64,000 nucleotides of DNA. Origin: Candidatus Bathyarchaeota archaeon. GTDB lineage: Archaea; Thermoproteota; Bathyarchaeia; Bathyarchaeales; Bathycorpusculaceae. Every line of letters begins with the position of its first letter. The first letter of the stretch is position 1. Shown piece after piece: positions 3,933 through 57,600 of this stretch. The translations under genes were made by a program, and so were the position numbers. The notes below the pieces were generated by a model. It saw only the letters and a list, made by a program, of their open reading frames with translations, had not been told where the DNA came from and ran no database searches. The DNA lies in contig OY970340.1 of NCBI GenBank assembly GCA_963717465.1, positions 1,856,001-1,920,000 on the forward strand, written 5' to 3'.

Positions 3933-5072
3933 ATGCTTCTTCTTCTTGACAGTCTGGTTCCTGTTTGGTGCATTAGCGCTTGGTCCTGCAGTTTTTATTT
4001 ATCTTTATACACGACATAAATCTTCAGTGTCTTGGCCGACAATCGTTGATGCTAATTACAGACCTAAAGTTTCAATCGTAATTCCTACGTACAATGAACA
4101 AGAAATTATTTCTTATAAACTTGCCAATTCAAGCAGTTTATCATATCCCAAAAAGTCTGCTGGAAATAATAATTGTTGATAGTAATTCATCTGACGACAC
4201 CGTTGAAATAATAAAGAGTTTTGCGCAAGATCAGAAAGACCTGAAAATCAAAATATTGGTTGAAAACGAGCGAAAAGGAAAATCCCACGCTTTAAACTAT
4301 GCCTTGCCACATTGCACTGGAGAAGTAATTGTAATTTCAGATGCTGACTGTTTTTGGCCTACTAACATTCTTGAAGCTGCTTTGCCTTTTTTAGCTGACC
4401 CAAAAGTCGGTGCAATTGGAGGCCCGAAGAACTCTTTTTAATTCAAGACAAACTTGGGTAACACGGATGGAAGAAAGATACCTTAAATCAGCAAATTTTG
4501 TAAGAGTCGGAGAATCAAAGGCTGGGTCAACGGTTTTTTTTGAGGGCGGTTTTAGCGCTTTTAAACGAGAAGCCCTGGATGAATTTGATCCTTATGATAC
4601 TGGATCTGATGACTGCGGTTCAATAATTGGGATTATAGAAAAAAATTATCGCGCAATGCTTGTTAAGGAAGCCAATTTTTATTCAAGCTTTCCCCCATCT
4701 TTTAAAGGTAAAATCAGCATCAAACTAAGACGAATCAATCAGTTAATCAGAGTTTTTGCAAAATACCTCGATTTACTAGTAAAAGGGAAAAATAAACGGA
4801 ACAAAAAGCACTGTCATACCTAATATTATTCTTTATTTGATTTCGCCAATCGCGTTCGTTACTTTCATTTTCCTCTCAATTTACCTATTTCTATCTTTTC
4901 CTTTGTTATTGCTCTTTTTTGTCTTTCTTCTTAATACCTGCAAGTGCGCTTTTACTTTTATGAAGTATTAGAAAGCAACGTTTTGCTTTTTATCTCATTG
5001 ATTGCCGTTTCTTTCGGAAAAAAATTCTCCGTTTGGTCAAAACCAGACGACAGAGTTTGGCAAACTGCATGA
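3933..5072 (+). CDS. Membrane GT2 glycosyltransferase, split by several frameshifts
   Basis: ORFs 3946, 4094 and 4410 join: VSIVIPTYNE, IVDSNSSD, GKSHALN, SDADC; paralog of 37494..38684; ends approximate. Confidence 0.8.
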
Positions 5073-16441: not shown

Positions 16442-18083
16442 ATGGATAAAGCGCTTCAGATGGGCAAGTCATCCACGACTGGCAGTTTTCACTTGCTAAT
16501 AGGTGTAGTGGGATCGACAGTAATCCTTGCTGTAGGTACGCTTATCTTAGCGGAATTTTTGACGGTTGATCAACTTGGACTTTACGGAATAGTTCTAATT
16601 CCAGCAACTATGATAGGGTTTTTTCGTGATTGGGGCGTTAACTATGCACTGACTCAACAAATAGCCAGTTTAAGAGCAAAAGGAAACGAAGGGGAGATTC
16701 ATAATGTTATTGTTGCAGGCGTAGTTTTTGAGGTAATTACTGGATTAGCTCTGTCACTTGTGAGTTTAGGTTTAGCTGTACCATTAGCGGTTATTCTGCA
16801 GAGGCCAGACGCTGCAGGGTTGATGGCACTCATGTCTGTCTCAATATTTGGTGGAGCATTAATTTCCGCAGCCTACTGGGATTTTTGTTGGATTTGAAAA
16901 AATGAAGTTCAACAGTTTTACTCAGATATTTCAGGCTCTGATAAAAACTGTCCTTGCTTCTTTTTTTGTGATTGCTGGTTTTGGGGTTGTTGGAGCCGTA
17001 ACTGGCACCATAATTTCATATATTGCGGGAGCAATAGTTTCAATCTTTATTGTTTACTTTTCATTGTTTAGACCGTTGAGAAGATTCAATGTTGGTCGAC
17101 TTGACGTTTGGCGTACATTAAAGCCTTTACTAGGCTACGGTATACCCTTAACGGTATCGAGCGTTGTGGTTGGTGTACTGCCTCAATTCTTCGCTTTTAT
17201 CATGGCAATTTATGCTGGAAACGCGATGATGGGCAACTATTATGCTGCCACCTATTTCGCTGTTCTTTTGACTTTTTTAACTTTTCCAATTGCAACTTCG
17301 TTGTTCCCAGTTTTTTCTCAACTAAACCCTGAAAAAGAGCCAAATCTTGTTTCCGCTGTCTTTACCTCATCCGTTAAATATACAGCGTTTCTTCTTGTTC
17401 CTGCAACAATACTTATCATAACTGTTTCAACTCCGCTAGTGAATACGTTGTTTGGAACAAAGTTTCCTTTTGCTCCAATTTTTTTGGCTCTATATTCAGT
17501 GATCAACTTGTATGTTGTTTTTGGAAACATTAGTTTGAACTCTTTCCAAACAGGAATAGGAAAAACCAGACAAGTAATGAAGCAAAGCCTATTGTCTTTA
17601 GCTGTTGGTTTGCCACTTGCCTACTTTTTAGTTTCCCAGCTAACGCATTTTGGTGGAGAATCGCTGGGTCAATTTTATGCCATAATAGGAGGCATACTGG
17701 GCATTTTAATTTCCAGTGTTCCTGGCATGATTTGGGGTCTTATTTGGACTTGGAGAAATTACAGGGCAAAGGCTGATTTCAAAGTTTCCGCCAAAATACT
17801 TTTTGCTTCAATTCTCGCTGCACTGGTAACTTTTGCTTTCCTAGTGGTCTCTACAAAAGCGCCTTATTGGCTTAACCTGACAGTTGGAGTGGCAATTTTT
17901 CTGCTTGTTTACTTAGTTAGTGCTCCACTTGTTGGCGCCGTTAACCGAGCTGATATCGACAATCTTATTTCAATGGTTTCTGGCTTAGGATTCCTTTCCA
18001 AAATCATCGACCATTTCTTATTGTATATGCGGCGAATAAGCAAAGAATCTCCTAGCACCAAAAAAGTGAATATTGAAGTCTAA
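16442..18083 (+). CDS. Oligosaccharide flippase (Wzx/MOP family), frameshift near 16875
   Basis: Two hydrophobic ORFs join into ~14 TM; GLYG, DWGV, YGIPL, GNYYAA, LFPVFS. Confidence 0.87.
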
Positions 18084-18172
18084 TGTTAGAAAGCTTAAAG
18101 AAACAGTTTTTCATATACTTGTTATTAGGAAAATCTATCTTTTAATCGATTTTAATTTTCGAGGTATTTTTT

Positions 18173-18979
18173 TTGACTTTAAACGACGAAGTTAACATGG
18201 CCAAGTCACGCATAGCTGCCACTTTTCTTATTTTAGGCTCGCTTTTACTGGTCATTTCAGTTTTTTATGGAATTCAAATTGTTGCGTTCATAGGGTTAGG
18301 ATTAACTTTTTGGGGTGCCATATTTGTCGTTACACGAACGGGAAATTTTGTTGATAGTGGTTTGCTTGAAAGTTCCGCGAAGTCTCTTTATTCAACGATT
18401 GATAGGATGCTTAATGATCTAAATTATTCTGGACAAGGATACTATATACCTGCTTATCCTCAAAACGTCTACCTTCCAGATTATCTTAAGAATTTGAAAG
18501 AATCAGTGGTTTTTATTTCAGATCGAAGTTTTTCTGGGCCACCTGCAATCGAAGAATTAGCATCAGGCAAATTTTTGTCAGCAAGATCAAGAGGCATATT
18601 TATAACTTCTCCAGGTTCAGGAATCTTGAGTGAAATAGAGAAAAAAATGAACTTGGATTTTACTAAAATTAATGTAAATGATTTATGTGGAATTTTGAGT
18701 CGTTGCATGACTGATTTTTTAAATCTTGCTAAGGCAATGGAGTTATTTGTTATTGACAGCAACACAGTGAGACTGATTGTAACTGGTGTTCTGTACGAAA
18801 GCCTGTACGACCCCGAGAGTAATTGTCGAAGTGTCGGCATTATAGGTTGTCCGCTGGTTAGCGCAGTGGCTTGTGCGCTCGCAAAGTCCTCAGGAAAGAC
18901 AGTGGCAATCAAATCTCAAACATTTTTGTCGAGCAATTCAAAAACTATTGATGTTTTATTTAGTTTTGTGAGAGGTTGA
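18173..18979 (+). CDS. Conserved hypothetical protein, 2 N-terminal TM and Cys-containing C-terminal domain
   Basis: LGLTFWG, YIP, SPG, GCPLVSAVACALAK; paralog of 52238..53086. Confidence 0.8.
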   Translation: MTLNDEVNMAKSRIAATFLILGSLLLVISVFYGIQIVAFIGLGLTFWGAIFVVTRTGNFVDSGLLESSAKSLYSTIDRMLNDLNYSGQGYYIPAYPQNVYLPDYLKNLKESVVFISDRSFSGPPAIEELASGKFLSARSRGIFITSPGSGILSEIEKKMNLDFTKINVNDLCGILSRCMTDFLNLAKAMELFVIDSNTVRLIVTGVLYESLYDPESNCRSVGIIGCPLVSAVACALAKSSGKTVAIKSQTFLSSNSKTIDVLFSFVRG

Positions 18980-19191
18980 AAAGAATGTTTTTTCCCCTGT
19001 CTTATTATGATCTGAGTTTATGGCTTGCTGCCGTTGCCATTATACTTCTGATTACTTCTGAAATAATATGTTCATCAACAGAATATTCTTCGAGAGTTGT
19101 GATAGACAAAAACTTTTTGAGAGCTGTTTCCCTTGGTTGCGGTTTAGCTTTTGTTGGTATGTTTATTATGCATGTAGCTAACTACTTTTAA
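18976..19191 (+). CDS. Small 2-TM membrane protein
   Basis: Overlaps upstream stop; paralog of 53089..53301 (LLITxE motif). Confidence 0.75.
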   Translation: MKRMFFPLSYYDLSLWLAAVAIILLITSEIICSSTEYSSRVVIDKNFLRAVSLGCGLAFVGMFIMHVANYF

Positions 19192-19211
19192 AAAGGCAGT
19201 TGTTTGTTGAG

Positions 19212-19680
19212 TTACGTTTGTGATCCTATTATTGCAATGTTAAAGCTGAATGTTGTAATGCCTGTTATTGATGATGACACGGTTATAGTTAGTGTTGCCT
19301 CGGTTGAATTGTTAGCTGCTAAGGTTGTGTTTTCCTGATCCCACGTCAAGGTTATGAAAGAGTTAGCGTTTGATGGGGTCCAACTTGAACTTGTCATGTT
19401 TAATGTCAATGGCACTGTTCCATAATTCTTGATGTAAATGGTTACACTTGTCGAGTTGCCTGGGGCTACTGCTGGCCAACTTATTGAGGTGCAGTTTGTT
19501 GTGCATGCTGAGTTGGTATAGGCACCTACATTAACAGTTGCTATTGTTCCAAGTGTTGGTAAATTTTGGCTTGTAGTCAGCAAACCTGAGGTTAGGGCTG
19601 TAAGAATTATTGCGACAGTAACTGCGCTTATTGCTATTATTATATGGTATTTTCGTATTTTTATTTGCTGTTTCCTCCAC
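19212..19680 (-). CDS. Secreted Ser/Thr/Asn-rich beta-sandwich protein (possible fibre or surface subunit)
   Basis: Frame extends upstream to KIRKYHIIIAISAVTVAIILTALTSGLL; the GTG at 19680 is out of frame by 1; IKNYGTVPLTL; many NxS/T sequons. Confidence 0.75.
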
Positions 19681-27073: not shown

Positions 27074-27246
27074 CGAATCAACGTTTTTGTAGAAGGGTGC
27101 ATTCTTTTAATACTTTATGGTTTTTTCCGATATATTGAAAATTTTCACAATGGTTCTGTTTGAAAGTTTTTTGTTGGCCAGTTAGTTGGCAGGTTGGGTT
27201 AAAACTTGATTTTTGGAAAAAGTTTTTTTTATTTTGTTTTTGGGTT

Positions 27247-27556
27247 TTAGATGAGTTCGATTGTTACGTGGACTTCTTCTGGGAACACGTATGCGCATGA
27301 TTCGTCGCATGACTCTTTCTTCTGAGTCGATGTCGATTAAGCGTTTGTGGATGCGCATTTCCCATCTGTCCCAGGTTGCTGTTCCTTCGCCTGAAGGTGC
27401 TTTTAGTACTGGAACTCTTAGTCGTTTTGTGGGTAATGGTACTGGGCCGTTGATTTTTACGCCTGTTTTCTGGGCGATACTTTTCAGTTCATTGCATACT
27501 TCTTCAAGTTTACTGTAATCTGTGCTTGTGAGGCGTATTCGTGCTTTTCTTACCAT
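27247..27556 (-). CDS. rpsJ: 30S ribosomal protein uS10 (one extra base at 27281-27283)
   Basis: [29 protein letters not shown]; removing one base restores [12 protein letters not shown] (102 aa). Confidence 0.97.
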
Positions 27557-49125: not shown

Positions 49126-50640
49126 TTAGCCGAAATTGTTTATCATTGTGTTTTCTGGGACGTTGGTATCGTAAATTTGCATGTATAAGTTATCGTACAC
49201 ATGGTTTTCTATCAGAACGTTGTTGCATGCGCCTGGATCCACAGATATGCCGTATTCTTGTGTTCTGGCGGCGCCTGAGCGGTCGTCAAAGGCTTGATTT
49301 TGGCTGATATAATTGTAGTTTCCACTTATTTCTATACCACTTCCACCATAAGTCATACCCCAATGGATCCCTGAGAGTTGGTCGTAAACTGTATTTGTAC
49401 TTACTGTATTGTTGTTGCTCGCCGAGTCAAGATAGATTCCGCCGCTACCGCACTGAGAAATTATATTTCCGCAAATGGTGTTGAAACCCGCACCGTAGAG
49501 ATATATTCCGATACCACCATTATATGATGTTGTATTGCAGTACATTCCAGTTACTTGATTATCTAAAACGGAGTTGTATTCACAACTAGTACCATACTGT
49601 TTTGTTAATACAATTCCGTATTGAGGTCGGCTTGTGCTGTTGCTTGTTATGGTATTCTGTGAAATAGTATTATTGTTGCAACTACTATCTTCTATTCCGA
49701 TAGAGCAGTTTCGGACGGTGTTTTGTGTTATTAAATCGTTGCACCCTCCCTCTATAGCGATGCCCCATTCAGCGTCTCCGCCACCACCTGTTGTTCCATT
49801 AAGGTCGTGAACATAATTTTCCGTTATAGTTGAGCCTATGCCATACGATGTTGCTCCCACATCACTGCAACCGTAGATTTCGCTATTAACCAAGTAACAA
49901 TCTACATCGGTCGACTGCCCTATGATAAAACCGTTCCAACCGCAGTCATAAATTTTGCTATTAATAACGCCGCTGTGAGTAGCTGTTATGGAACCAGAGG
50001 GCAGAGTCCAAATGCTTGCATCTACTCCAAACACACGACAATCGTAAATTACAGCGTTAGTAATCTCATCATTAGAACCAGCGATATATACGCCGTCTGG
50101 TTGGTTGGGAAATGAACCTACAACTTGGTTGGCTGCATTGCCGTCTATTGTTACACCCGATATAACACAGTTATTGACATTGTTTAGGAGTAGAACAGGA
50201 GCGTTCAAATTATTGGCCGCAGCAAGTTCAGCTCCGTTTTCAAAATTTAGAGTAATGCTATTAATGTTAGATAGAGTCCATGAGGTAATTACTGAATACA
50301 CGCCGCTCTCAACATCGATCCTACCACCAGCGGGGCAATCCTCAACAGCATCACTGAACACTCGACTAGAATTTGGGCTTTGAAAGACTATTTGTCCCGT
50401 GGCTCCATCTACCATTTGGTAATTTGAGCCTGAGACGCTTAATATGTAGGAGTATGGTTCAGTTAGTGTAGACGTTGGCGATAGTATAGGTGTTTGTTTA
50501 AGTGTCGGCGTTGAAGTTTGTTGGATGTCTCCGCTAGAAAATAAAGTCAAACTTGGTCCAATTATGCTGGCTGAGAAAACCGTGAGTAGCATTCCGATGC
50601 ACATTGTTATGACCGTTAGCACGCGAATCTTGGTGTTCAT
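49126..50640 (-). CDS. Secreted right-handed parallel beta-helix (pectin-lyase/NosD-like) protein
   Basis: N-terminal hydrophobic signal; IDGNAANQ; repeated GI-x-I..N-x-I-xx-N-x-I; TQEYGI. Confidence 0.87.
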   Translation of the reverse strand: MNTKIRVLTVITMCIGMLLTVFSASIIGPSLTLFSSGDIQQTSTPTLKQTPILSPTSTLTEPYSYILSVSGSNYQMVDGATGQIVFQSPNSSRVFSDAVEDCPAGGRIDVESGVYSVITSWTLSNINSITLNFENGAELAAANNLNAPVLLLNNVNNCVISGVTIDGNAANQVVGSFPNQPDGVYIAGSNDEITNAVIYDCRVFGVDASIWTLPSGSITATHSGVINSKIYDCGWNGFIIGQSTDVDCYLVNSEIYGCSDVGATSYGIGSTITENYVHDLNGTTGGGGDAEWGIAIEGGCNDLITQNTVRNCSIGIEDSSCNNNTISQNTITSNSTSRPQYGIVLTKQYGTSCEYNSVLDNQVTGMYCNTTSYNGGIGIYLYGAGFNTICGNIISQCGSGGIYLDSASNNNTVSTNTVYDQLSGIHWGMTYGGSGIEISGNYNYISQNQAFDDRSGAARTQEYGISVDPGACNNVLIENHVYDNLYMQIYDTNVPENTMINNFG

Positions 50641-52237: not shown

Positions 52238-53086
52238 ATGTCTAAGCCAAAAAAATCCCCCTATAAAATGCCGGCAATTGCAATGCTCACTTTAGCAATA
52301 GTGTTAATAATTATTTCCGCGTTCAACAGTTCCTCTTTTGCAGCAATTTTAGGCGTTACTTTAGCATTCTGGGGCATAATCCTTCTTTATATTTCTCCAG
52401 TTAAACATGTGCCCTTAACAATGCTCAACGCCACATATGACACAAGCAACATCGAACGCCTATTAACATATATGAATATTACACTAAAAGGCGTTTACCT
52501 GCCGCCTAAAAACCTCCCAAACATAGATTCTAATATAGTCATAGATTCTAGTTTGGTCTTCATTCCTGAAACGAGCCAGACTATTGTGCCTCTTCCTGAA
52601 GAAGTAACAAAGTTGTTAACCCCAAGAAAAGACGGATTACTTCTAATTCCGCCGGGCATGAATCTTTGTAAACTTTTCGAGCATGAACTAGGTGGGCCAT
52701 TCGAAAAAATAGACCTTGCCCACCTACAAACTTTGCTTCCAAAATTGCTTATGGAAGACTTGAAGATAGCAGAAAAAGTTGAAATTGACCTTGAAGCAAA
52801 CATAGTAACCGTGAAAGTGACAAAAAGCATTCTATACGAAACATGCGAAGCCACTCAGAAACAGCCTCGCACACATACCCTAGTGGGTTGCCTTTTAAGC
52901 AGTGCTATAGCCTGTGCTCTTGCTAAGGCCTCAGGCCAACCGATAACAATTCTTCAGGAAAAACAAAACCCGGAAACTAAAACCACCCAAACAGACTACG
53001 AAATCTTAACGCTCCTGCCCACTACAGAACCTACAACCACTTCAGCTAAAACCGAACAAGAAAACACCCTTTTTAAAGAGGCGTAA
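52238..53086 (+). CDS. Conserved hypothetical protein (paralog of 18173..18979)
   Basis: LAFWG, VYLPP, PPG, GCLLSSAIACALAK. Confidence 0.8.
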   Translation: MSKPKKSPYKMPAIAMLTLAIVLIIISAFNSSSFAAILGVTLAFWGIILLYISPVKHVPLTMLNATYDTSNIERLLTYMNITLKGVYLPPKNLPNIDSNIVIDSSLVFIPETSQTIVPLPEEVTKLLTPRKDGLLLIPPGMNLCKLFEHELGGPFEKIDLAHLQTLLPKLLMEDLKIAEKVEIDLEANIVTVKVTKSILYETCEATQKQPRTHTLVGCLLSSAIACALAKASGQPITILQEKQNPETKTTQTDYEILTLLPTTEPTTTSAKTEQENTLFKEA

Positions 53087-53301: not shown

Positions 53302-53538
53302 AAACTTATGCTGGGCAAGCTTGCAAAAAAGCAAAGAATACCCTAAAACTTCAACAACAATTCGTTAAAACTTAACCAAAAAATTTCCTTGATAACTTTA
53401 ACATGAACAAATTCAAAAAAATGCTCTTGTTATCTGTCCGGAGCAGGGTTTTATCGCTAGCCATTATGTCGATTCATCAATGGCCTCCAATACTCAAGTT
53501 GAAGTTATCGACGAAATCAGTTAACACTAGTGTACCAC

Positions 53539-55637
53539 ATGGAAGAAAACAAATTGCTTTCCACCAAGATGGTTTCAGAGCTGAACCACTATAGATTGTC
53601 GATTGCACTAAAATTCATCGTTATAACCATAACTGTAGTAGCATTGTACCTCCAAGACTTAAACATGATCTTCACGGGTGCTTTAACCAACGAATCAAGC
53701 TACTACATACTTGCAATCCTATTCCTCTTCGGTTACTTAATATACCGAAAAAGGAAAATGATTGCCGCCGCCATTCAAATTCCTCAAACAAGCACACGCG
53801 GATTCCAAAAATACTTCAGCACACTAGCTGGCATATCATTAAGTGCAGTCGCTATACTCTCATACTGGTATGGAAGCTACACCTTCACACCACTAGAATA
53901 TCACATGCTTACCCTGCCTTTTCTAACAGCAGGATTAATCTTAATATTATTCAACACTCAGACACTAAAACAATTACTTTTCCCCATAGCATTCCTCATA
54001 TTCCTCACACCTCCCCTTGACGAAATCCTTTACGGCACTCGGATCAACACTCGCAAACCTAAGTGCATCAGCATCAAATGCCCTTGCAAACCTGTTCGGA
54101 ATACACTCAATACTCTCTGCCAGCAACGTAGGCCCCATAATAACCCTCATCAAATCAAATCAAACAATCTTATCCTTTAACGTAACTGTGGCTTGCTCAG
54201 GAATCTACAGCATCATAGGCTTCGCAATATTTGCACTATTCATAGCCTACATCACCCGCGGTAAACTACGCAACAAATTAGCTATCCTTATCATGGGCAT
54301 TCCACTAATTATGGCACTGAACATAATTCGCATAACAACAGTTCTTGCAATAGGCTATAACTTCGGCGAAGATTTAGCACTACAAGTTTTCCATGCAATA
54401 GGCTCCACAGTGCTAATGTTTTTAGGTACACTTTTGCTGCTGGCTATAACAGAGAAAACATTCAAACAACCAAAGCCGCCACAACCTTGCCTAACATGCA
54501 ACCCGACCCAGACAAACCCAGCCGAACCATTCTGCCCCAGTTGCGGAAAACTCTTCAAACTCCCAAAAACAAAACTCAACAGAGCAGACATCGCAAAAAT
54601 CGCAGGCATCGCTATAATCGTAGTTATGCTTTTATCTATTCAAGCGCCCGTATTCGCCCTAACGCAAGGCCCAGCCCAGGTCATAACCCAAACACCATCA
54701 GGCATCCAAGTTAACACATCAAACTCCCTGCTCCCAAACATCACAGGATACACACTAAATTACCTCTACCGCGACACGCAATTTGAACAAGAATCAGGCG
54801 ATGACGCAGCACTAGTCTACTCCTATGCCTCACCTAACCCAACAACATCACCCATATGGGTAGCCATACAAATAGCCGCCAGCATAACATCCGAACACCG
54901 ATGGGAAACCTGCCTCATCAATTATCCACTCAGCCAAGGAAATCCGGCAACGGTAAACCAACTGGACCTTAGAGATATTCAAATTCAAGATAACCCTCCC
55001 TTAACGGCACGATACTTCGCCTTCCAATACAAAGACACGAACCAAACCCAAGTTATTCTCTACTGGTACGAAACAGCCACATTCAACACAAACGGCACAG
55101 CACAAACAAAAAGCGTAATGATCAGCTTAATTGTGTACCCATCGTCTAATCAAAGCATTTCAGACGCTGAGGCCCAGCTACTGCCAATTGCCAACGCCAT
55201 TAACAACTACTGGAATCCAATACAAACCTGGAGTACAATCGCATTAAGCATCAGCCAAAACGGACTTGCCTTCTCAGCAGGCGCAACCGCCATTCTTGTT
55301 CTACTCATAATCTACGCTGTATACTTAGATAGAAAAGAGAAACTTTTTCTCTTAAACCACTACCAAAAACTCTCAACACCAAACCAACTCATAATAAAAG
55401 CAGTAACCAACGCCCAAAAACAAGGAAACCCAACAACCGAAGGCATAATTACTGAGCTGCAAAAATTAACACAAACAACTGTTGATAAAACATGGCTCAC
55501 AGAAAAACTCACGGAAGCCCAAAACGCCGAACTAATCAAGCAAACACTAGCTGAACAAGAATGACGAACCCCGTATCCAATGGGAAAACCAGGTCCCTCA
55601 GAACACTAGCTTTGCCAGCAAACTTTTCCATTTCTGA
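53539..55637 (+). CDS. Exosortase/archaeosortase-family transpeptidase with fused extra domains; frameshifts near 54035 and 55550
   Basis: LLFPIAFLIFLTPP, catalytic ACSG (Cys), NIIRI (Arg), FH (His); downstream CxxC/CxxC, HRWETC and LYWY. Confidence 0.87.
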
Positions 55638-55736
55638 AGAATATTGGTTCTAAAGAGAAATTATAAAGCGCGCTATAGATAAGTATGTATAGTTTTTCAT
55701 GCTCCTTTATAAGCAACCGACTTTTTAACTTAAAAA

Positions 55737-56297
55737 ATGATGGTCTGTCGAATGAGAGGGGCGAACTTAAGTAAAACCGCTTTATTGATAATTTTAAGTA
55801 TTGCTATTATTGCACCCTTGATGATAAACGTTGTACACGCTGGCACAGGCACGGCTAATACTGTTGGCCAAGTATGGTTGGATGCCCAGCAGAATGATCC
55901 GACTGGTCAATATTGCATCAGTCAAGCCTCTGTTGGACAAACAGTTTACATATATTGGGGCCACATAACGCCCCCATCAGGTACAGTAAAAATTGTTGTA
56001 ACACCCTACGACGAGGATGGAAATGCTTTGACACCAATACAACTTGGCATCTTGAGTCCTTCAGCTTCGGGGACGACGGCAGCCTCTTTTGTTGTTCCTA
56101 ATACACCTAATGGTTACTGCGATGTTTCGCTATATGGACAAGCTACCAAAAAAGCAACCTTACGAGTTGTTGCCAGTGTGACACTGTTTGTTCTGCCCGA
56201 AAGCACATTTGGAACGTTAGCTGCGTTAGGAGCAGGCTTAGCAGCTTTCGCTGTCTATAAGAAACGAAACAGCCTCCCACACTTATATAGAGCCTAA
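55737..56297 (+). CDS. Secreted protein with PEP/PEF-CTERM-like sorting signal
   Basis: Signal peptide ending VHA; C-terminus FVLPES-TFGTLAALGAGLAAFAVY-KKR. Confidence 0.82.
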   Translation: MMVCRMRGANLSKTALLIILSIAIIAPLMINVVHAGTGTANTVGQVWLDAQQNDPTGQYCISQASVGQTVYIYWGHITPPSGTVKIVVTPYDEDGNALTPIQLGILSPSASGTTAASFVVPNTPNGYCDVSLYGQATKKATLRVVASVTLFVLPESTFGTLAALGAGLAAFAVYKKRNSLPHLYRA

Positions 56298-56494: not shown

Positions 56495-57004
56495 ATGGTG
56501 AATATGGCTGGAAATCCCCAAGTTCTTGCGATAGCGATCACAGTATTTGTAGCATTTAGTCTGCTTTTTCAGGTTGGGTGTTTGGCTCAAACCGATCAAA
56601 CACAATCAAAACTTCAAGCAGCTGATACTGCAGTTGATCAAGCATTCAGTGCTGTTTCTGCTGCTGAGAAAGCTGGCGTAAATGTGACAAGCTTACTTAT
56701 CCAGTTAAATAATGCAACTAGGTTGTTAGGTCAAGCAGAAAACGCTTATGCAACTGGTGATAACAGTACGGCTATCAGTGATGCGAACGCTGTTTTGCCC
56801 ATTGCAAATCAAGTTTTAACAGAGGCACAGACAGCAGATTCATCTGCTTCCGTTTCATCTCAGAATAATTTCGAATTAACCATTGCACTAACAATTGTTG
56901 CAGCCGCGCTTTTTATCGTAGATCTGATTCTAAGTTGGGACCTGTTTAAGGATTACTATATTAAGCGTTTACTTAAGGCAAAGCCTAAGGTTGATGCTCA
57001 ATGA
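56495..57004 (+). CDS. Exported helical protein with C-terminal TM anchor
   Basis: Signal peptide, AEKAGVNVTSL helical bundle, C-terminal TM then KAKPKV. Confidence 0.78.
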   Translation: MVNMAGNPQVLAIAITVFVAFSLLFQVGCLAQTDQTQSKLQAADTAVDQAFSAVSAAEKAGVNVTSLLIQLNNATRLLGQAENAYATGDNSTAISDANAVLPIANQVLTEAQTADSSASVSSQNNFELTIALTIVAAALFIVDLILSWDLFKDYYIKRLLKAKPKVDAQ

Positions 57005-57600
57005 AGCTAAGCGACTTTCAACTCATTTTTATCGCCGCTGGTTTGATTGGCGTGTTGCTGATTGCTTCTCCTGCTCTTGCTAGCTTAATCCATTTGCCAA
57101 GTGGCGAAGCGTTTTCTGAACTTTACCTTTTAGGCCCAAATAACATGGCTGGGGATTACCCTTTTAACATTGAGGTTGGACAGAACTATCTAGTTTATGT
57201 AGGTGTTGGCAACAATCTGGGTTCATCAGCTTACTACGTCATAGAAGTGAAGCTCTTGAATGGAACGAGCTTGTTGCCAGACTCCTCAGCTGGGACGCCT
57301 AGTCCGGCTCAGTCGCTCTATGAATATCGGTTTGTGCTTCAGGATGGAGCTACCTGGGAGGCTCCTTTGAATTTTTCCATTGTCGATGGTTCAATCTCAG
57401 GGCTCAATTCTCAAATTAACGTTTTGCAGATTAACGATGTCACGTTTACCGTGGGGACCTCTGCCTTGTGGAATTCGAATTCAACGGTGTTTAACTACCA
57501 ACTTTTGTTTGAACTGTGGCTCTATAATAATTCTTCAGGCGCAGTTGATTATAATAATCGTTTCGTGGATTTGCAATTAAACTTCACTGGACCAACTTAG
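57001..57600 (+). CDS. DUF1616-like protein
   Basis: EAFSELYLLG..AGDYP, VGVGNN, L..GATWE, LLFELW. Confidence 0.82.
   Translation: MKLSDFQLIFIAAGLIGVLLIASPALASLIHLPSGEAFSELYLLGPNNMAGDYPFNIEVGQNYLVYVGVGNNLGSSAYYVIEVKLLNGTSLLPDSSAGTPSPAQSLYEYRFVLQDGATWEAPLNFSIVDGSISGLNSQINVLQINDVTFTVGTSALWNSNSTVFNYQLLFELWLYNNSSGAVDYNNRFVDLQLNFTGPT

Follow-up and report, generated by a model that had tools for sequence, protein, structure and literature searches.

Does a membrane protein with a Cys/Arg/His triad, followed directly by a small secreted protein ending in FVLPES, a membrane helix and KKR, represent a sortase and its substrate in an archaeon, and is the PES spelling a sorting signal of its own? This question is raised by positions 53,539 to 56,297 of a 64,000-nucleotide stretch from a Candidatus Bathyarchaeota archaeon (contig OY970340.1; the whole stretch is called the window below). 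The genome carrying it is a single contig of 3.05 Mb, 88% complete. An earlier inspection of the letters, here called the sequence-only reading, had proposed a new exosortase system with a distinct PES-type signal, coupled to neighbouring glycan genes. Our data indicate that the enzyme-target pair is real and belongs to an unnamed Bathyarchaeia branch of the exosortase/PEP-CTERM kind, while a PES-specific system is not supported. At a probability of roughly 0.7, we take the enzyme to be a Bathyarchaeia-centred, bacterial-type (long, EpsH-like) exosortase extended by a Zn ribbon, an ectodomain resembling EpsI and a C-terminal winged helix, together with a cognate PEP-CTERM-like signal.

The triad is located at Cys 54194, Arg 54329 and His 54392. 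Among 81 aligned family members the respective columns hold C in 80 and R and H in all 81. The window enzyme reaches 64.9 bits on TIGR04178 (cut-off 23) and its two pieces 43.2 and 59.7 bits on PF09721 (cut-off 25.7). Scored together with four intact homologues against existing models, it passes the generic family models only and no named subfamily model, as the sequence-only reading had expected. The best-scoring named models for the four homologues are bacterial, namely XrtA, XrtW, XrtD, XrtV and 8TM_EpsH, all far below cut-off: scores are 68-91 on XrtA (TIGR03109, cut-off 208) and 56-80 on TIGR02602 (cut-off 105.55), and the cut-offs of the XrtD, XrtW, XrtV, XrtE and XrtT models are not reached either. 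The enzyme likewise stays below the cut-offs of ArtA, ArtB, ArtC, ArtF and thaumarchaeosortase, with no cognate PGF, VPXXXP, PEF or PEFG tail, and NCBIfam 20.0 contains no model for the enzyme-tail pair. Relatives with a public annotation are called 'exosortase' or 'exosortase/archaeosortase family protein'. In the literature searched, in which subscription journals are thinly covered, no description of a Bathyarchaeia exosortase was found.

The long-exosortase family comprises 306 representatives at E <= 1e-30. It is found in 88 of 251 genomes of the host family, in 18 of 201 genomes of a class sample and, in a phylum sample of 151 genomes, in one genome of another class (L182, genome G554; full length). 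Labels of 79 homologous sortase loci are Bathyarchaeia, Bathyarchaeota or Bathycorpusculum in 75 cases, Nitrososphaerota in 3 and Nanoarchaeia in 1. A full-length member with 53% identity on a contig labelled Nanoarchaeia (L100) is possibly misbinned. A distant full-length sub-group (E 1e-55 to 1e-98; G193:C1:19408-21263, G410, G416, G392, G302:C3) at times accompanies the main type within one genome.

The sequence-only reading treated the enzyme as a single open reading frame (ORF) and overlooked two breaks. In the assembly the coding region is split over three frames with breaks near 54035 and 55553, each a net surplus of one base. The frame-1 ORF (53530-54180; start at ATG 53539 or GTG 53530) continues out of frame, the frame-2 ORF (54017-55564) holds all domains later than the exosortase core, and a third-frame piece of ~27 codons with its stop at 55635-55637 aligns to the conserved C-terminal end of homologues. 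The whole span corresponds to about 698 residues, compared to 694-707 in the closest relatives; intact relatives have ~690 amino acids (aa). In the closest full-length relatives (L120-L123) the gene is one uninterrupted ORF. Of the 79 homologous loci 66 are whole, 6 are cut at contig ends and 7 are split.

Frame changes are frequent in this assembly. In a survey of 80 places with a coverage of 80% or more by conserved proteins of related loci, 17 change frame (33 changes over 86 kb), whereby errors in the query sequences could add false changes; the sortase itself is among the 80 and scored 0 since partial queries were allowed. Ribosomal uL3 (G000:C1:259040-260051) changes frame against two independent queries. 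Within the window, the match to uS10 (27182-27556) ends at position 91 of 99, so that this gene probably lies in two frames, and a GT2 gene (4094-4823) and a flippase gene (16442-18083) also occupy two frames. At the observed rate the probability of at least two breaks in the exosortase gene is 0.19. Given the frame changes in 17 of the 80 genes surveyed, and with 66 of 79 homologous loci uninterrupted, the two breaks are most likely assembly errors; the cell itself probably carries an intact gene. For any other finding on this genome, frame breaks in the assembly are likewise suspect.

If the breaks were genuine, the enzyme would be a pseudogene and its target would be left tethered by an uncleaved helix. 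Two breaks within one gene point in this direction, as do the patchy distribution (88 of 251 genomes), the remnant with orphan tails in genome G118 and the single target left in the window's genome. However, the pieces lack internal stops, keep all motifs and show 70-76% identity to intact relatives throughout; moreover uL3 is broken likewise, and the breaks in the 7 other split homologues bear no relation to these two (profile positions 79-593, none at 164 or 675). We therefore regard a decayed gene as unlikely. Programmed frameshifting was considered as well and is rejected, as the split homologues break elsewhere and the closest full-length relatives are single ORFs. The decayed locus in G118 (G118:C44:2995-3225; L114, L117) retains a winged-helix-end remnant interrupted by an opposite-strand gene, with tail-profile matches on the same contig. 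Elsewhere, open frames of 1209-1802 aa contain the long exosortase (L043:6438-10082, P0012, G316:C1, G410:C1:1712896), which suggests fusion to upstream genes.

The core is followed by a four-Cys ribbon, a helix, an outer domain of ~190 residues, a second helix and a cytoplasmic tail (Table 1). The ribbon is presumably cytoplasmic and Zn-binding. Aligned by hhalign to 6 annotated bacterial EpsI domains, the outer domain yields E 0.00056 and probability 29.7, with the H-x-x-E-x-C and Y-W motifs in register. The cut-off of PF11984/TIGR02914 is not reached (13.4-13.9 compared to 26.1 in three of four ectodomains, no match in the fourth). Among Atlas clusters, DUF3485 is nearest to the outer domain (0.86), which is a lead only. 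Structures were compared using the predicted model of an intact homologue with a predicted local distance difference test score (pLDDT) of 75. Its outer domain resembles the Mog1p/PsbP-type fold (Z 8.9-9.6; best root-mean-square deviation 3.5 with 108 aligned; Mog1 Z 9.1) and residues ~600-687 resemble a winged helix (Cdc6/Orc1 Z 8.7, Fur/Nur Z 8.4), all Z scores being modest. Foldseek of the whole enzyme against the PDB returns no match at E <= 0.001. In a wide structural search no solved exosortase core stood out, which says nothing about the fold of the enzyme.

The target corresponds well to the earlier description: the ORF at 55737-56297 encodes a signal-peptide protein with FVLPES at 56187 and KKR at 56259, followed by 9 further residues. 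A six-frame search of the genome with the family tail profile gives 46.1 bits for this tail and 13.2 for the next-best place. It is the sole match in the genome and, given this distance, not a chance match. The body of the target matches no Pfam or NCBIfam family. Its model (pLDDT 60.5) finds generic beta-sandwich matches only (Z up to 6.3). A sigma-70 promoter scan, unsuited to archaea, remained below shuffle level.

To describe the signal family-wide, tails were collected around the sortase genes. A pattern search flagged 51 of the 79 loci; after removal of 6 false and 5 IPEF-type hits, 73 tails from 49 loci remain. They lie on the same strand as the enzyme in 70 of 73 cases and within 500 bp of it in 27 loci (for L066 the distance was measured between two enzyme pieces). 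The consensus is [FN]-V-[VI]-P-[ED]-x-[PA]-[LTF]-G, followed by a helix and a basic cluster consisting mostly of Lys. P occurs in 73/73 tails (it was fixed in the search pattern), E or D in 64 and 9, V at -2 in 61 and V/I at -1 in 67. The third motif position varies freely: Y 21, V 16, L 9, P 6, I 6, S 4 and others 11. The 70 tail-bearing bodies long enough to compare, including the window's, can be sorted into 23 groups without relationship to each other. Among the hallmarks that Haft gives for tripartite C-terminal sorting signals (section 5 of bioRxiv 2023.06.07.544157), the following are found here: location at the C-terminus, helix, basic cluster, signal peptide (judged by eye from the N-termini), unrelated bodies and gene linkage.

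This variability bears directly on the claim that PES forms a signal in its own right, recognised by an enzyme sub-family devoted to PES and housed in a cassette of its own. In its favour, all six target homologues have PE[SA] tails, PES being kept in 5 of 6; 13 other genomes contribute another 15 distinct PES tails; four of the eight closest enzymes (two of them identical) adjoin PES or PQS tails; and the window's genome has one enzyme and one target. The two closest enzymes (76% identity), however, adjoin PEY tails and two more SEY. In full, the eight nearest enzyme rows adjoin PEY, PEY, SEY, SEY, PES, PES (the identical pair), PQS and PES, and the window enzyme nests in a PEY-rich clade. 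PES makes up only 4 of 73 tails and occurs with other spellings around single enzymes, as PEY+PES+PEY in L035 and PEV+PES+PET in L040, or shares a genome with one long enzyme (G086); altogether 18 of 63 loci with profile matches mix spellings. A tail profile built without PES members still finds the window tail at 42.2 bits, with 13.0 for the next place. A profile of the target family matches in 29 of 251 genomes. The 30 loci retrieved with it show 18 instances of PES, counting the window and two duplicates; they come from 14 genomes, all with the long enzyme. A sortase lies within 1.5 kb only in the window and in two PEY loci, hence in none of the other PES loci examined. Owing to the mixed spellings around single enzymes, the PEY tails beside the closest enzymes and the success of the PES-free profile, we reject a PES-specific signal; such a system appears largely refuted in silico, we hold it to be quite improbable, and this narrower claim should be dropped. 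Spelling seems to follow lineage loosely, with PEY dominating the clade of the window's enzyme, and PES is best described from the sequences as a recurrent minor spelling typical of the target's small-protein family. Tails even without Pro (S-E-Y) are found beside intact enzymes (targets L121:3682-4458 and L122:3685-4461), and P-Q-S at L120.

Enzyme and tail co-occur across genomes, in line with the sequence-only reading of a cognate pair, and tails are linked to enzyme genes. With thresholds of E <= 1e-20 for the enzyme and E <= 1e-5 for the tail, 81 of 251 host-family genomes have both, 7 the enzyme only, 17 the tail only and 146 neither. Within the host genus (39 genomes) the numbers are 14, 1, 1 and 23; many double negatives inside one genus are not circular. 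In the class sample the tail is present in 18 of 18 enzyme genomes and in 4 of 183 others; in one of these four, the contig with the tail also holds a remnant of the enzyme. Tails per genome range from 1 to 19. The window's genome, having one sortase gene and one family tail, is a one-to-one case.

Bathyarchaeia possess a second sortase family of ~345 aa, whose best match is thaumarchaeosortase (60-70 bits, cut-off 250). The tail could in principle be handled by this enzyme, with the long one having another role, and ~345-aa enzymes are indeed common in the class. Yet no member of this family was detected in the window's genome, genomes with that enzyme alone lack a strong tail match, and 10 IPEF-type tails score -0.1 to 11 bits on the family tail profile as opposed to 33.5-59.4 for members. 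We give this assignment hardly any credence. The long-enzyme system is separable from the IPEF-type one. In the ~345-aa family (L021, L022, L027-L032) the Cys is kept in W-P-C-x-G and the gene often adjoins those of IPEF-type-tail proteins. Minimal exosortase-family proteins of ~174 aa (L024-L026; TIGR04178 42.4 for L024) overlap a membrane gene of 440-450 aa; no tail partner was seen at these loci.

How does the pair relate to known systems? With bacterial PEP-CTERM/XrtA (EpsH) and EpsI (TIGR02595, TIGR03109, TIGR02602, TIGR02914) it shares the long multi-helix core with Cys/Arg/His, a C-terminal EpsI-like fusion, a V-P-E-led tripartite tail and polysaccharide loci. In contrast, the host is archaeal and has no outer membrane, the third motif position is free and the tail end is Lys-rich. 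A plain archaeal copy of PEP-CTERM/XrtA that needs no separate description would agree with four VPEP tails that pass TIGR02595 (18.3-29.4 bits; from 8 other tails scored singly and picked for VPEP), with the 11 of 73 tails matching at E up to 10, and with the EpsH-EpsI fusion in polysaccharide context, which is the classical pattern (Haft 2006, PMC1569441, which finds no archaeal PEP-CTERM). On the other hand, 62 of 73 tails have no TIGR02595 match, the window tail itself stays at 14.4 below the cut-off of 16, the basic cluster is mostly Lys, the intact enzymes fall short of TIGR02602 and far short of XrtA, and Zn ribbon and winged helix are extra. A mere copy is accordingly improbable in our view.

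Fused XrtD (VPLPA-CTERM, TIGR04152) and XrtW (NF038142) show the same single-chain EpsH-EpsI layout, and the XrtW model aligns through the Bathyarchaeia ectodomain (positions 3-430 of 494). Scores of 56-85 compared to cut-offs of 400 and 425, another signal and a length of ~690 instead of ~490 aa set the Bathyarchaeia enzymes apart. Archaeosortase A/PGF-CTERM (TIGR04125, TIGR04126; Haloferax volcanii) belongs to the same enzyme superfamily with the same triad, but the score is 22.2 at a cut-off of 75, the motif differs, and PssA/PssD were not found in the host family. Archaeosortase C/PEF-CTERM (TIGR03762, TIGR03024) and thaumarchaeosortase/PEFG-CTERM (TIGR04297, TIGR04296) have similar archaeal P-E-x tails. 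The enzyme nevertheless scores 29.5 on ArtC (cut-off 100) and does not match TIGR04297, the best tail reaches 13.2 on PEF-CTERM (cut-off 23) and 14.9 on PEFG-CTERM (cut-off 25), and Bathyarchaeia hold the separate thaumarchaeosortase-like family with IPEF-type tails. ArtA/PGF and ArtC/PEF are named as pairs in PMC5244752. A tree of 36 rows unites the 19 family rows in a single clade (96/91); this clade groups with 6 bacterial exosortases, separated (95/92) from a set of 10 thaumarchaeosortase(-like) rows and one further row. A search of plasmids yielded no more than 10 bacterial exosortase matches, all weak, which limits this tree.

Several observations speak against the placement we favour. 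The EpsI homology of the outer domain is below every profile cut-off. In the tree the family is sister to the bacterial rows and not nested in them; as the tree is unrooted, includes only 6 bacterial rows and no ArtA/ArtC rows, and carries long-branch warnings, no donor is deduced from it. The gene of a distant homologue in G193 is interrupted at a position (profile ~157-161) similar to that of the first break. The co-occurrence is inflated, since the tail profile was trained near these enzymes, partly in the same genomes, and the genomes are kin; moreover, completeness reaches 90% or more in 7 of the 17 genomes with the tail only. Finally, cleavage site and acceptor would have to be taken by analogy for every family member.

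Cleavage most likely follows ArtA/Xrt precedent in outline. The target would be exported via its signal peptide and held in the membrane by the C-terminal helix. The catalytic Cys would then cut at or just after the P-E motif on the outer membrane face and thereby remove the helix. The ~115-residue beta-sandwich may stay at the cell surface, surrounded by the glycans that neighbouring genes produce, and the EpsI-like domain may present the target or hand it on. Cleavage and lipid anchoring have their experimental model in ArtA of Haloferax volcanii (PMC7157517). ArtA is needed for C-terminal helix removal and lipid attachment (bioRxiv 2023.06.07.544157; PMC7157517), and its processing depends on PssA/PssD (PMC7157517). 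Phosphatidylserine decarboxylase (PF02666) was found in 0 of 101 host-family genomes and in 0 of 5 genomes, and archaetidylserine synthase (TIGR04217) in 0 of 101 above cut-off, with weak matches in 16; the H. volcanii control was positive in both searches. As the decarboxylase was not found in 101 genomes, ArtA-type ethanolamine-lipid anchoring is doubtful, and probably the acceptor is not archaetidylethanolamine or the protein is released.

A more speculative, rather doubtful extension is that a bacterial-type PEP-CTERM/EpsI machine works here in a single-membrane cell that lacks the amino-lipid acceptor of ArtA and uses a different one, another lipid head group or a surface glycan from neighbouring genes, picked by the EpsI-like domain, while the cytoplasmic Zn ribbon and winged helix would link sorting to a partner on the inside, for instance the DUF7982 protein. 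If so, the window's genome would be the minimal one-enzyme, one-target case of such a machine. The fused EpsI-like domain and the missing PssD make both the role of EpsI and the need for an ethanolamine-lipid acceptor testable in one construct. The enzyme sub-family is definable, and the tail profile allows surface proteins to be recognised in a large archaeal class, most of which is uncultured.

Table 1. Features of the exosortase locus and its neighbours; positions refer to the window.
Feature	Position	Strand	Remarks
DUF7982-family membrane protein	52238..53086	+	commonest sortase neighbour (52/89 loci); Atlas 0.95, 227 shared features, PF25939 in 90% of cluster
Exosortase, N-terminal membrane helices	53539..54034	+	frame 1; PF09721 positions 3-120, 43.2 bits; profile A3 positions 8-164
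Exosortase, catalytic half	54035..54450	+	frame 2, ORF 54017-55564; PF09721 positions 120-250
Putative zinc ribbon, CxxC...CxxC	54488..54544	+	Cys in 79, 76, 80 and 80 of 81 rows; weak PF08772 match
EpsI-like extracellular domain between two membrane helices	54629..55216	+	HxWExC motif at 54896; five N-glycosylation sequons
Winged-helix-like cytoplasmic C-terminal domain	55330..55637	+	last ~27 codons in third frame after break near 55553
Secreted target	55737..56297	+	186 aa (database start at 55752); hydrophobic N-terminal signal, then a beta-sandwich of ~115 residues and the sorting tail
Sorting signal, FVLPES + membrane helix + KKR	56187..56267	+	tail-profile match 46.1 bits
DUF1616 C-terminal-half protein	57001..57600	+	PF07760 positions 160-272; 1/89 loci, not a regular partner

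Neighbouring genes were counted, as raw numbers, over 89 sortase loci (the 79 plus 10 further). Besides DUF7982 these show a 123-aa secreted family in 35 loci, a flippase in 27 and the N-terminal-half type of DUF1616 in 27; the latter is located elsewhere in the window's genome. Any of nine glycosyltransferase queries from the window is found in 27 of 89 loci, and WecB in 0 of 89. Near the window's sortase lie a GT2 gene, DUF2206 and the DUF1616 piece. The coupling to glycan genes assumed by the sequence-only reading is hence borne out for surface-glycan genes, which appear enriched, and is weak for DUF2206 (8/89) and for the DUF1616 C-type piece of the window: sortase genes of this family occur in surface-glycan loci generally rather than in a fixed DUF2206/DUF1616 module.

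A secreted parallel beta-helix protein without sorting tail is encoded in the glycan cluster at 49126-50640 (minus strand). The 123-aa secreted family, which matches no Pfam entry, has 6 copies in the window's genome. One of them (19212-19583, minus strand) lies 35 kb upstream of the sortase in a region (16442-19583) that also holds the split flippase and a second DUF7982-like gene (18173-18979), that is, the usual companions of sortase loci.

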